A DNA stretch of 64,000 bases, taken from positions 35,473-99,472 of IMG/VR virus record IMGVR_UViG_3300023181_000027. The stretch is one strand, 5' to 3'. The stretch comes from a virus (Duplodnaviria > Heunggongvirae > Uroviricota > Caudoviricetes). The translations under genes were made by a program, and so were the position numbers. Shown here piece by piece: positions 19,180 through 22,589 of this stretch (position 1 is its first letter; each line of letters starts with the position of its first letter). Under the pieces are notes generated by a model. That model was not told the DNA's origin. It was given only the letters and a program-made list of their open reading frames with translations, and did not search any database.

Positions 19180-21051
19180 TTATGCTACTCTTTTAAGGTT
19201 TGTTTCAAACTCAGCTCGGATTTCAGCAAGAGTGGGGTCGATGATAAGTTCACCTTCCTGGAAGATAACTCTAAATTCACCACCTGTTTCCTCTTCATCC
19301 GTACACTGATCTTTAAGATAATATTCGCCCTTCTCATCCTTGTAAACAGCTAGCAATCCTTTGGCGGATTTCTTAGTGCCATCATCAGTGATAGGGTCTT
19401 TGAAGATTTCTCTCGGTTCGATTAGAGATAGAGTATCTTCGTCAATAGTGTCTGGTTCGAACAGATCACGGTCTTCTGGGCCAGCAATCACGAATCTCCC
19501 GCCATCACCATATGTAGGGCACTCACCAGTGATAGATCCATCTTCTTCGTGGATGATATTGATGATTCTATGTGCAAGCTCACCATAAGTGGCTTTCATC
19601 GCCATACCGTAAGTATCGCGGGTTACATACTGATAAGTATACGAACCGACACCTGCCACCCAGTTAGTAGAAGCGAAACCTTTGTCCATTAAACGCTGAC
19701 AGATTTGCTCTGCGCGCTCAAATGTGATAGAATCACCATAGATAGTACCAATATGAGAATCCAACTCTTTAAAGCCAAGTTCATTTACTGTACCACCAAA
19801 GGTATTCCACAACAGTTCCACAACACCAATCTGCTCAGGTGTACGAGTGATTTCTTTCGCGGTGGTAGTTACCTTACCCATAGTATAGTAACTATTATCA
19901 GAGTAAGCGCCACGTTCTTTGATTGATTCGATATCAGCAGTGATCTCGTAGTACTTACCATCCACTTCAGCAAGAAATGTTGCATCAAGGCAAAAGCTTT
20001 CACTATCACCGTACTCATTATCATCATTGTTCCGCACTTCATCTTTATAGAATTCAAGTGCTTCGTCAATGGTTTTGAATGTTTCAAATACATCACCGCA
20101 AAGGATCCTTACAGGATCACCAGAGTCAGGACGCGGTACCACTTTACCGTCACGAGCCAGAATTTCAGGTTTAAGCTGTTCAAGGATACCTCCTTCTTTA
20201 CAAACCTCCCATAAATCCCAAGTATCAGATACAATGCTGACATATCCTTTTGGGTAGATCTCCGTGATCAACCGTTTAAAAGTAGAGAATTCCCCGTCTT
20301 TCATACCCATACACATTACCGAGTGTTCAGTTGCAGGAATACTGCCACCAATCAGTTCATTGTCTGAGTTCGCGTTGTAATACTCTTCCAGGTAATCGAT
20401 AGCTGGAATAGTGTCAGTTCCACGAGATCCTAGTAAGTGCGCTGCTCCGGAAGCTGCTGCGGCCATTCTGTTCACATGACCTCTCATGGAGAAATCATGA
20501 ATTTGGAATGTTGATGAGAAGTCAGTGTTACCGACGGTCAACCTGGCGTACTTGTCAAAGATCTTACGATAGAGGGCTATAGTGGTTGCTGAAGTCATTG
20601 GATGCCAAAGCTCACAAGAGAGAATTGTCTCTAAGAAGTTAGGAACCCAGAAGAACTCAGGTATTTCATTTGTGATTGTCAAAACAGGTACACCCATTTT
20701 AACGAAGCTTCCTTCAGGAAGAGCTTTAATTGTTACTGGTAGGTAGCCAAGATCATGTAGTTGCTCCACATGCTCGTAAGTCATACTGTTTGGGCCGAGA
20801 TAGTTATCTAGCCTACGTTTGTATTTTCTTACTGCCTGCTCTTTATCGAGTGAGAAGAATGTATCACTGAACTCTTTAATCAACACTTGCTTAATGAAAG
20901 CAGTGATACCAAAGAAGACAACGTGATTGTTATCTTTCACACGTGATTTGCGTGGTGTAAAATTGGAATATACCCTGACAGTGTTTTCAGGATATTGGCG
21001 ACGGTGATCTACCTTGTAGCCGTCGGTGAGGTGTAATGCTGGTATTTGCAT
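19180..21051 (-). CDS. nadV: nicotinamide phosphoribosyltransferase (NAMPT/NadV)
   Basis: 623-aa ORF with the NAMPT signature VVPRPDSGDP and overall collinearity with the NAMPT family. Confidence 0.75.
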   Translation of the reverse strand: MQIPALHLTDGYKVDHRRQYPENTVRVYSNFTPRKSRVKDNNHVVFFGITAFIKQVLIKEFSDTFFSLDKEQAVRKYKRRLDNYLGPNSMTYEHVEQLHDLGYLPVTIKALPEGSFVKMGVPVLTITNEIPEFFWVPNFLETILSCELWHPMTSATTIALYRKIFDKYARLTVGNTDFSSTFQIHDFSMRGHVNRMAAAASGAAHLLGSRGTDTIPAIDYLEEYYNANSDNELIGGSIPATEHSVMCMGMKDGEFSTFKRLITEIYPKGYVSIVSDTWDLWEVCKEGGILEQLKPEILARDGKVVPRPDSGDPVRILCGDVFETFKTIDEALEFYKDEVRNNDDNEYGDSESFCLDATFLAEVDGKYYEITADIESIKERGAYSDNSYYTMGKVTTTAKEITRTPEQIGVVELLWNTFGGTVNELGFKELDSHIGTIYGDSITFERAEQICQRLMDKGFASTNWVAGVGSYTYQYVTRDTYGMAMKATYGELAHRIINIIHEEDGSITGECPTYGDGGRFVIAGPEDRDLFEPDTIDEDTLSLIEPREIFKDPITDDGTKKSAKGLLAVYKDEKGEYYLKDQCTDEEETGGEFRVIFQEGELIIDPTLAEIRAEFETNLKRVA

Positions 21052-21071
21052 AGTTTCTTTTTGTTTTTATC

Positions 21072-21254
21072 TTAAATTAATACTGAAGTAACAACTTCTA
21101 GATTACCATTCTTATTTGGTTGAATTGTAAACCAACGTGAATGTATAGGACTCGATTGCCCATTCAGGGTGATTATATCACCAGGTACTGGTGTAGTAGG
21201 AAAGTCAACTGTAACCGTCTTACCTGTACTGTCATTAACAACTGTTACTTGCAT
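21072..21254 (-). CDS. hypothetical small protein (60 aa)
   Basis: Track ORF between NAMPT and the NDT-like gene. Confidence 0.35.
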   Translation of the reverse strand: MQVTVVNDSTGKTVTVDFPTTPVPGDIITLNGQSSPIHSRWFTIQPNKNGNLEVVTSVLI

Positions 21255-21255
21255 A

Positions 21256-21735
21256 TTATTTTAAGTTTAATCTAATGTTTAAGTGGCGGATAGCCAAATC
21301 GAAATCGGTGTAAATTGGTATCTTATACAAGACACACATAGCAAATACGTTATCGAACTTTACATACTCCCTTGGACAACAAACAACCACATGTTTAGTG
21401 TTTAAACGTTGCGCTTTTAAGAATCCGATCATCTGACCAAGCTCTAAGAGCGAGATCATAGACATTGTGCCGGGTAAGAAATTAAAGAAGATATGCGTAG
21501 ATGCCATTAGATACCGCTGTTCCCAAGCAATTTGCTCGTCAATTTCAGCAGCACTAGCTGCAGGGTTCCACTTAATCCTACGTGGATTAATTAGTGTGGT
21601 ATCTGGAGCCTGTAAAAGGGCTTCCATTTTAGCTTGCCAATCAGTTGAATTGCCATTTTCAATGGTACCAGCTAGGAACACATACTTGTGTGTTGGTATA
21701 ATACCAACTTCTTCGGGTGCTGTTTTTACATGCAT
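21256..21735 (-). CDS. nucleoside 2-deoxyribosyltransferase-like Rossmann protein
   Basis: Motif YVFLAGTIENGNSTDWQ resembles the (I/V)(Y/F)LAGP...(D/N)WR signature of NDT-like proteins. A paralog is at 50123..50518. Confidence 0.45.
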   Translation of the reverse strand: MHVKTAPEEVGIIPTHKYVFLAGTIENGNSTDWQAKMEALLQAPDTTLINPRRIKWNPAASAAEIDEQIAWEQRYLMASTHIFFNFLPGTMSMISLLELGQMIGFLKAQRLNTKHVVVCCPREYVKFDNVFAMCVLYKIPIYTDFDLAIRHLNIRLNLK

Positions 21736-22589
21736 GAGTAAGATATTACCTGTTTATTGTCAACTTGATTTTGAAAACTATCAGTGGTCAGAATAAAGTC
21801 GATGCCATTCTCTAAGATTGGTGCATAACCTTTACTAAATAAACCATGAGTGATAGCTAGTACGATACCGTGTATCTTCGGATGATCCTTCCGAATGATT
21901 TTAGCAGCCTCCGTAAAGGTTCGGCCACCATCACACAGATCATCAAAAAGGATGATTGTCTTACCTTCCAACACCTCAGGTGCATCCATAATTTTCATTC
22001 CTGTAATGTCACCTGTCATCAAGTTCCTTGTTTTGTGTAGGTAACCAACTTCAGCAGGAAGCTTTTCAACTTTAATCAAATTCTCCACTCTTTTCACCGC
22101 GCCAAGGTCTGGTGCAAAGATAACGAATTTTGACTCAGGCGGAGAATTAAATATGTAATCGGCTACTATCCCATCTAACGGTGTTTGAACTTCTACTCGC
22201 TCTATTAGAGAGGTAGAAACGCTAGAATGCGGTTCAATAATGATCACCTTCCTAAATTGCATGTCATTGATGAGTTTGGCAATGATCTTCAAGTCAAAGC
22301 TGTCACCGGGATACATGCGTCGATCGTAACGACCGGCAATTAGATAAGTGCAAAACAGTGTCAATTTGACATCAATATTCAATTCGCGGATTGCATCAAC
22401 TGCCTGTAGCAGTATGAACATATCATCGAAATTACGGATACGTGTGAGAATTTGAATATTCCCATTCCCCTTTATGAGGGTGACAGCATCGCTTAGATCA
22501 ATGTGTTTGTGACCGTCTGGAAAGTTGATTACCTTGTATGGCAAGGTGAAGGGTTGATTAGTATAACCCTTAATAAGATCTAAAATCAT
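21726..22589 (-). CDS. prs: ribose-phosphate pyrophosphokinase (PRPP synthetase)
   Basis: PRPP-binding loop IILFDDLCDGGRTFTEA, with length and architecture of Prs. Confidence 0.75.
   Translation of the reverse strand: MILDLIKGYTNQPFTLPYKVINFPDGHKHIDLSDAVTLIKGNGNIQILTRIRNFDDMFILLQAVDAIRELNIDVKLTLFCTYLIAGRYDRRMYPGDSFDLKIIAKLINDMQFRKVIIIEPHSSVSTSLIERVEVQTPLDGIVADYIFNSPPESKFVIFAPDLGAVKRVENLIKVEKLPAEVGYLHKTRNLMTGDITGMKIMDAPEVLEGKTIILFDDLCDGGRTFTEAAKIIRKDHPKIHGIVLAITHGLFSKGYAPILENGIDFILTTDSFQNQVDNKQVISYSCM

Follow-up and report, generated by a model that had tools for sequence, protein, structure and literature searches.

A probable NARP1-type NAD+ reconstitution module with an embedded PF15891 gene in a Caudoviricetes genome

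The sequence analysed here, referred to as the window, is a stretch of 64,000 nucleotides from IMG/VR virus record IMGVR_UViG_3300023181_000027 (Caudoviricetes; positions 35,473 to 99,472 of that record). It has ~39% G+C, is phage-like, and carries nearly all of its genes on the minus strand. The subject of this report is a group of four closely packed co-directional genes at 19180-22589, which are predicted to encode two enzymes of NAD+ resynthesis, a protein resembling nucleoside deoxyribosyltransferases (NDTs) and a short open reading frame (ORF):

21726..22589, minus strand: putative adps, 287-aa Prs-like protein (Pribosyltran 1.6e-6; Pribosyl_synth below its cut-off; phrog_619 8.5e-66)
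21256..21735, minus strand: NDT-like gene, 159 aa (PF15891 Nuc_deoxyri_tr2 1.4e-19)
21072..21254, minus strand: 60-aa ORF between the NDT-like gene and namat
19180..21051, minus strand: putative namat, 623-aa NAMPT-like protein (Pfam NAPRTase 7e-31, NAMPT_N 4e-9; phrog_448 9e-180)

The adps stop and the NDT-like start overlap by 10 nt, the NDT-like stop is 1 nt from the start of the 60-aa ORF, and a spacing of 20 nt separates this ORF from the start of namat. The gene for the Namat homolog lies two ORFs downstream of adps on the same strand, inside the span of 10 genes set by the published criterion. A first-pass annotation made from the sequence alone had called the larger ORFs of this region and several others in the window, and all of its ORFs and family or domain calls are real, on the minus strand and exact in their coordinates; the 60-aa ORF was overlooked. 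This short ORF has a counterpart at the same position in locus L002, from an identical phage, and in L003, where 28 of the 60 residues are identical, while Pfam and PHROG scans with it gave no match. Other loci with the order Adps-NDT-Namat do not have it; their NDT-Namat gap ranges from -45 to 173 nt, with a looser spacing of 1300 nt in L033. A scan of 18-25.5 kb for promoters and terminators returned signals no higher than the shuffled expectation. Megablast of 19000-23000 against GenBank phages found no match, nor did tblastn of a 942-aa protein of the window.

Phage operons annotated as "Prs + Nampt" have been reported not to make nicotinamide mononucleotide (NMN). They encode NAD+ reconstitution pathway 1 (NARP1), present in ~4-5% of phages, in which Adps pyrophosphorylates ADP-ribose (ADPR) and Namat joins the resulting ADPR-PP to nicotinamide, giving NAD+ (Osterman et al., bioRxiv 10.1101/2024.02.11.579819). 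We consider it highly probable (roughly 85%) that 19180-22589 is a NARP1 module of four genes, one of them an embedded accessory. The core pair is a divergent member of the known NARP1 and otherwise ordinary. The NARP1 architecture with an embedded PF15891 NDT-like gene is new, and it is backed by strong and repeated genomic association.

We infer that the 287-aa Prs-like protein is an Adps, which would convert ADPR and ATP to ADPR-PP and AMP. The sequence comparison gives 150 bits and 38% identity to Adps of Felixounavirus garuso (same genus as Bas63, the genetically tested phage), 84 bits and 32% to ICP1 Adps, for which a structure is solved, 77 bits and 33% to SPbetaL1 Adps, ~70 bits and 25-27% to archaeal phosphoribosyl pyrophosphate (PRPP) synthetases (PRPS), and 43 bits and 23% to E. 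coli Prs. The protein falls below the cut-off of every NCBIfam Prs model, including TIGR01251 (94 vs a cut-off of 113), which SPbetaL1 Adps likewise fails to reach (106 vs 113). A PDB sequence search returned canonical PRPS entries only, and the comparison with ICP1 Adps was done by sequence alignment. Features described for the Adps family are a remodelled PP-loop, a catalytic hairpin lysine and the loss of the C-terminal α11-α12 helices (ICP1 Adps; PMC13586617). The PP-loop of the window protein, D216-D-L-C-D-G-G-R-T-F225, is of the Adps type (garuso, DDICDGGRTF; ICP1, DDICDGAASF) and differs from the canonical DDMIDTGGTL or DDIISTGGTI (pattern DD[MI]I[DS]TGGT[LIM]); at the three positions that tell the two types apart, >100 of 107 Adps-clade members, the window protein included, have C, G and F. 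The catalytic lysine is conserved as K186 (ICP1 K185, SPbetaL1 K162), as are the acceptor-site residues F23, R87, H121, D161, D216 and D217, which correspond to F18, R87, H121, D161, D212 and D213 of ICP1 Adps; the remodelled donor site of the ICP1 enzyme comprises C215-S220 and F221. The chain ends shortly after the TTDS motif, where Adps ends and beyond which E. coli Prs runs ~30 residues further, so that the α11-α12 module of PRPS is gone. A neighbour-joining tree of 111 sequences places the protein in a clade with Adps of SPbetaL1, ICP1, Tsamsa and Felixounavirus, and this clade is split with a bootstrap of 100/100 from the canonical Prs, which are represented by four outgroups only (E. 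coli Prs, the bacterial Prs-like P0105 and two archaeal PRPS). Among the 80 IMG/VR loci that come closest to the window Adps, 77 have a Namat gene within 8 kb, in agreement with the published Adps-Namat association of 97% (Osterman et al., bioRxiv 10.1101/2024.02.11.579819).

For the 623-aa NAMPT-like protein we infer a Namat, forming NAD+ and pyrophosphate from ADPR-PP and nicotinamide. It is 56% identical to the biochemically validated SPbetaL1 Namat over aa 4-320 and 39% identical over aa 409-612. The best PDB match is 9w5x (1e-149, 503 bits), a 491-aa chain whose aligned parts match SPbetaL1 Namat residue for residue; human NAMPT scores 198 bits. Matches across 2018 phage records fall into two groups, one Namat-type with 33-52% identity and 300-500 bits, the other made up of T4-like nadV with 26-32% identity, half coverage and ~100 bits. 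Against Nampts of the second pathway, NARP2 (Va3 and Aeromonas phage 31), the identity is ~30%, with 114-131 bits. The adenine "selectivity clamp" of Namat comprises, in SPbetaL1, the loop residue R40 plus the helix aromatics F392 and Y396 (PMC12774641). As in every Namat reference, the clamp residues are present in the window protein: R37 in the loop, and Y471 and Y475 in the helix (GVGSYTYQYVTRD, GVGSYTYQY). The clamp-helix site of the NARP2-type Nampts of a KVP40-like phage and Aeromonas phage 31 reads GMGGGLLQQLDRD (GMGGGLLQQ), and NARP2 Nampts have G/Q or G/M at the two helix positions. Truncation or loss of catalytic residues had been named in the first-pass annotation as a sign of inactivity; H243, R307 (the equivalent of SPbetaL1 R306) and D309-S-G-D312 are all intact. 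The extra length of the protein is due to two insertions. The first (~321-408) is common to Tsamsa and Felixounavirus Namats and is for that reason compatible with function, and the second (~491-544, ~54 aa) is found only in the close relatives L003 and L006.

Homology and signature residues suggest the following course of reactions. Once NAD+ has been broken down to ADPR and nicotinamide by a SIR2, TIR or SEFIR NADase of the host, the phage would rejoin both: Adps would move the β,γ-pyrophosphate of ATP onto the 1'' hydroxyl of ADPR, giving ADPR-PP, and Namat would swap this pyrophosphate for nicotinamide, giving NAD+ directly. Neither an NMN intermediate nor an NMN adenylyltransferase (NMNAT) would be required on this route, because NARP1 makes NAD+ from ADPR, ATP and nicotinamide in two steps. 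To this the gene neighbourhoods add a possible third step, in which the PF15891 protein would act as an accessory N-glycosidase on some NAD-derived nucleotide. The idea of a phage NAD+ counter-defence module, already put forward in the first-pass annotation, is supported. Its assignment of the pair as Prs and NAMPT leading from nicotinamide to NMN probably does not hold, the signature features being those of Adps and Namat, and its suggestion of a host-supplied or non-canonical adenylylation step gives way to NARP1, which would explain why no NMNAT is seen. The label "Prs plus NAMPT", used by annotation pipelines as well, creates a false puzzle of a missing NMNAT.

The module shares with the NARP1 operons of Bacillus phage SPbetaL1, Escherichia phage Bas63 and Vibrio phage ICP1 both core enzymes, the order adps then namat on one strand, the Adps PP-loop with its catalytic lysine, the Namat core with its clamp, and no NMNAT in view; insertion 1 of Namat is shared with the Felixounavirus and Tsamsa proteins. 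It differs from these three operons in having the PF15891 NDT-like gene and the 60-aa ORF between adps and namat, in the lineage-specific Namat insertion of ~54 aa (491-544), in the Adps identity of 31-38% to the reference enzymes, and in having no near phage relative in GenBank. NARP2, as in Vibrio phage KVP40, consists of the Nampt NadV and the NMNAT-Nudix protein NatV; it has in common with the module a Nampt-family enzyme, the use of nicotinamide and counter-defence by NAD+ resynthesis. In contrast to NARP2, the Nampt-like enzyme of the window carries the Namat clamp at ~30% identity, an Adps is present, and no NMNAT-Nudix protein is found in the window.

From 412 relatives of the NDT-like protein in IMG/VR the best 80 were taken with 8-kb flanks, and the flanks were scanned with hidden Markov models (HMMs) built from our own Adps and Namat alignments. 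Of these 80 loci, 51 have an Adps and/or Nampt-family gene, in every case co-directional with the NDT-like gene; the NDT-like gene and its nearest partner often overlap or stand 0-50 nt apart. After clustering, the linked loci number 30 of 53 at 90% NDT identity and 20 of 40 at 70%. Against a generous genome-wide NARP prevalence of 6% the binomial P is 3e-23. A second NDT-superfamily gene of the window (50123-50518) served as control family under the same treatment, and none of its 17 loci has Adps or Namat (Fisher P 5e-7). The most frequent order is Adps-Namat-NDT (24 loci, among them L024), followed by the window order Adps-NDT-Namat (~10); the rest are partial or other. L003, whose Adps is 67% identical to that of the window, has the same four-gene order. 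Other arrangements are NADAR-x-x-NDT-UvrD-Namat-Adps in L025, with NADAR near the NDT-like gene, and Adps-kinase-Namat-x-x-NDT in L019, while the phage homolog of L022 has NadE and an Adps-like gene in its vicinity.

Five loci are of NARP2 type, with a clamp-less Nampt and a NatV-like NMNAT-Nudix partner. At L031:1061-4046 the NatV-like gene, the NDT-like gene and the Nampt gene follow one another with junctions that overlap or measure 4 nt, and similar arrangements occur at L085:4185-9916 and L099:5242-8417 and in L105 and L057. We did not find PF15891 NDT-like genes described in NARP2-type operons in the literature, and found no paper that links PF15891 or any NDT-like protein to NARP pathways. 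The NDT-like family is tied to NAD+ reconstitution in general. The recurrent linkage also supports the first-pass proposal that the NDT-like gene belongs with the module.

We also noticed considerable variation in what relatives carry at and around this position. The interval that separates adps from namat seems to be a hotspot of accessory-gene swapping. In a 41%-identical relative (L006:6897-7283) and in L007 it holds an unrelated 128-aa gene. A kinship of the L006 product with either NDT-like protein of the window was ruled out; a precomputed annotation gives it a weak DUF8296 match, and our own Pfam scan gave none at 1e-3. The kinase at L019:1452-2390 is an uncharacterised insert, a Zeta-toxin/AAA_33 P-loop protein with a weak NT5C C-terminus, between Adps and Namat. 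Extended NARP1 islands, with 4-7 kb between Adps and Namat, are found in seven IMG/VR loci (L038, L041, L048, L049, L051, L063 and L084); they contain a macro-like gene (probably Adpp), NADAR (7e-50), a Band_7/flotillin-like gene of ~635 aa, an AAA/BCS1-like ATPase and a Thg1-like gene, then the NDT-like gene. Upstream of the Adps-Namat-NDT array of L024, at a distance of ~1-1.8 kb, lie a Tad2-like gene (anti-Thoeris sponge family) and a HAD_PNKP phosphatase (L024:1757-2542), a neighbourhood consistent with an anti-NADase/anti-Thoeris island. An Adps-like gene with 43% identity to the window Adps stands at L005:6001-6858 with no Namat within 6 kb. Its product has substitutions at otherwise near-invariant positions (F18N, R87L, D212S, D216T, T220D and F221V in ICP1 numbering) and looks like a protein decaying or repurposed after loss of its partner. 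On a bacterial contig (L020:2491-5594, order Nnr-HAD-NDT) a PF15891 homolog lies directly downstream of a bifunctional NAD(P)HX epimerase/dehydratase (YjeF_N + Carb_kinase) and a HAD hydrolase, and this order hints at damaged or unusual nicotinamide nucleotides as substrates of the family's cellular members.

The window NDT-like protein keeps all invariant and near-invariant residues of its family, namely FLAGTI, W33, Q34, NPRR 50-53, W56, Q68, W71, E72, S92 and LLELG with E98. The LLELG glutamate occupies the nucleophile position of the NDT and DNPH1 families, and the active site looks intact. The predicted model has the NDT fold, a Rossmann-like N-glycosidase fold related to TIR and SEFIR, with dNMP/CMP hydrolases and NDTs as structural neighbours. 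The protein shares only 8-15% identity with solved NDTs, the Pfam family of true NDTs (PF05014, EC 2.4.2.6) gives no match, and on this sequence evidence it should not be named an NDT. PDB entry 4mcj (BDI_0649 of Parabacteroides distasonis), an uncharacterised "putative nucleoside deoxyribosyltransferase", is among the closest known counterparts; literature on 4mcj and BDI_0649 and the supplements of the aRES paper yielded no earlier description and no functional study of the PF15891 family. The Retron-Eco1 (Ec86) effector, which is of marginal similarity (E 0.18, N-terminal motif only), is an NDT-like N-glycosidase that hydrolyses NAD(P)+ (PMC12673091), and because of it an NDT-fold enzyme is known to be able to act on NAD. 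In contrast to that effector, a phage enzyme destroying NAD+ would counteract its own operon.

Two accessory enzymes of NARP1 operons have been described: Adpp, a macro phosphatase that turns the ADPR-1P produced by aRES into ADPR (10.64898/2026.01.28.702374), and RyDEP, a glycosidase with a RyR domain that turns 2'/3' cyclic ADPR (cADPR) into ADPR (PMC13232231). The window resembles the operons that carry them, NARP1-AP of Vibrio phage Gary (Adps-Adpp-Namat) and the RyDEP NARP1 of mycobacteriophage DyoEdafos, in having a third gene inside the operon, and by analogy its insert would widen the range of NAD-derived molecules handled. The insert differs in being neither macro nor RyR but a PF15891 protein of NDT fold, and its family, unlike Adpp and RyDEP as reported, is also found in NARP2 operons. 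From the gene neighbourhoods, the window protein probably adds a third member to these kinds of NARP accessory: an N-glycosidase with an NAD-derived molecule as its substrate. For the family as a whole we see about an even chance that its NDT-like members are an unrecognised and widespread third class of NARP accessory enzyme, N-glycosidases on an NAD-derived metabolite or immune signal. The same neighbourhoods suggest two candidate roles. One concerns nicotinamide, which the enzyme could for instance set free from NMN, nicotinamide riboside or another pyridine nucleotide, and the other is the destruction of an immune signal with N-linked ADPR, cADPR, N7-cADPR and histidine-linked ADPR (His-ADPR) being examples; a strict role in feeding ADPR to Adps is a poorer fit. 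An NMN nucleosidase as the general function was set aside, being futile inside NARP2 operons; it is possible for NARP1-only contexts.

A feeding role like that of Adpp and RyDEP is in our view rather unlikely. The NDT-like protein would then cleave an N-glycosidic ADPR conjugate to linear ADPR, killing a signal and supplying Adps at once, with canonical cADPR, N7-cADPR (type IV Thoeris) and His-ADPR (type II Thoeris) as candidate substrates. The slot between adps and namat is the exact insertion site of Adpp and RyDEP, NDT-fold enzymes cleave C1'-N bonds via a glutamate nucleophile, here E98, the fold is related to TIR and SEFIR, and in extended islands the gene co-occurs with macro, NADAR and Tad2-like genes. 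What speaks against this proposal is the presence of the gene inside NARP2 operons, which are PRPP-based and do not use ADPR; a pure feeder role is unlikely to be general for that reason, and destruction of the signal alone could be the general role.

It is less likely still, though by no means negligible, that the NDT-like gene is unrelated to NAD+ and is a chance neighbour in an early-gene block, encoding a (deoxy)nucleotide N-hydrolase or transferase for the nucleotide pool or DNA modification, such as DNPH1, MilB or true NDTs. The structural neighbours (dNMP/CMP hydrolases and NDTs) are enzymes of this kind, the window has further nucleotide-metabolism genes (a MazZ-like/NT5C protein, PTPS and the second NDT-superfamily gene), the whole region is one co-directional block, and homologs in cultured jumbo phages do not adjoin NARP genes. 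Such a neighbourhood by chance is hard to square with a linkage to NARP1 and NARP2 that is strong, repeated, strand-consistent and often translationally coupled in many lineages and several orders, with the count of 0/17 in the control family, with the bacterial homolog beside the NAD(P)HX repair enzyme Nnr, or with the phage homolog near NadE and an Adps-like gene.

If the proteins are NAD-directed accessories of NARP operons, as we prefer to read them, they may, since they serve both NARP1 and NARP2, point to an undescribed bacterial NAD-directed defence chemistry or nicotinamide-recycling step, and the family of PDB 4mcj would receive its first function. With each NARP1 insert characterised so far a further layer of the NAD+ arms race has come to light, aRES and ADPR-1P through Adpp and the cleavage of 2'/3'cADPR through RyDEP, and the NDT-like family, tied statistically to NARP1 and NARP2, is a concrete candidate for the next.

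The absence of a canonical NMNAT noted in the first-pass annotation is confirmed for the 64-kb window: among 55 further ORFs with a length of 100 aa or more Pfam gave no CTP_transf_like (NMNAT) match, and the window has no match to an HMM of NatV-like proteins. In other loci, NatV-like NMNAT-Nudix proteins are picked up by this Pfam scan. Macro, RyR, NMN_transporter (PnuC) and NadR-type domains are also without a match among the scanned ORFs of the window. A true PRPP synthetase and NAMPT making NMN, to be adenylylated by host NadD/NadR or an unrecognised phage enzyme as in a NARP2-like pathway without its own NMNAT, would suit the Pfam and NCBIfam names, the NMN-forming activity that SPbetaL1 Namat keeps with PRPP (PMC12774641) and a genome that extends beyond the window, but is very improbable given the Namat clamp that NARP2 Nampts do not have, a bit score 3-4 times closer to validated Namat than to NadV, the Adps PP-loop together with the loss of the PRPS C-terminal and regulatory elements and the failure of all Prs model cut-offs, the lack of an NMNAT in 64 kb, and the Bas63 operon (from the genus of the closest cultured Adps relative), which works without host pncC and nadR.

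Several points weigh against the assignment of the four genes to NARP1 with an accessory, or limit it. The module proteins are identified by sequence comparison. The window Adps is just 31-38% identical to characterised or genus-level validated Adps, and differs from ICP1 Adps at some ligand contacts (F92->M, A218->G, A219->R, S220->T and F223->E), the methionine at the F92 position being shared by most clade members. The tree includes only the four canonical Prs mentioned, and its homologs were gathered with the window protein as query. Some flux through NMN is conceivable, as SPbetaL1 Namat still makes NMN from PRPP in vitro (PMC12774641), and an NMNAT could lie elsewhere, as the window makes up roughly one half of a contig that is at least 135 kb long. 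The module is embedded in one long co-directional block, and co-transcription of exactly these four genes is a presumption. The NDT-like gene is a minority accessory: among the 80 NARP1 loci closest to the Adps of the window only 4 have it, the reported share of NARP1 phages with Adpp being 15%. Seven cultured phages with PF15891 homologs have no Adps or Namat in the inspected flank.

Three more genes of the window had been assigned to the same NAD+/ADPR toolkit:

7531-7983, minus strand: SLOG gene (cpYpsA SLOG, 3.8e-23)
43341-43817, minus strand: Nudix gene (NUDIX, 4.5e-13)
50123-50518, minus strand: second NDT-superfamily gene (PF15891, 6.8e-9, match to the N-terminal half only)

A distance of ~11 kb separates the module from the SLOG gene, whose neighbours are a MazZ-like/NT5C protein and PTH2, and the stand-alone Nudix gene is ~21 kb away. 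An IMG/VR pattern scan returned no relatives of either, and phmmer searches of the ORFs in ~115 NDT/NARP loci with the SLOG, Nudix, PTH2, MazZ-like and DUF6717 proteins, two upstream ORFs and the 60-aa ORF gave no match, so membership of SLOG and Nudix in the toolkit finds no backing. The Nudix protein is not NatV-like, having no match to the NatV-like HMM. The gene at 50123-50518 had been called a paralog of the NDT-like gene. It is a distant member of the superfamily, but with 20% identity to the 21256-21735 product and no glutamate aligned to that of LLELG it is not a close paralog, and its 0/17 loci with NARP genes leave it without a link to the module.

Some minor observations concern the surroundings of these genes. 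The Nudix ORF overlaps by 44 nt a downstream DUF6717 ORF (43004-43384, 8.8e-30), and because the latter uses GTG one of the two starts may be mis-set. The SLOG gene is the middle one of three adjacent minus-strand genes. The first of them (6693-7520) encodes a protein whose N-terminal domain is of the dATP/dGTP diphosphohydrolase type (MazZ-like, 8.6e-32) and whose C-terminus is a weak match to NT5C, and the third (8056-8427) the peptidyl-tRNA hydrolase PTH2. The trio at 6693-8427 could be a nucleotide-pool or DNA-modification module, and the tests made show no relation to the NARP1 genes. A weak match to 6-pyruvoyl-tetrahydropterin synthase (PTPS/QueD-like, 2e-4) was obtained for one of 18 ORFs within 44283-63621, and PTPS and MazZ-like genes together hint at modified-base metabolism. 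Finally, a Ter-type cluster on the minus strand at ~27473-33400 contains TerC, a vWA-TerF-like gene, a ComF-like PRTase_3, TerD, a HAD hydrolase and Band_7; it is syntenic with L003 and L005, and TerD/TerB/TerC genes also lie near NARP1 in L006 and L024.

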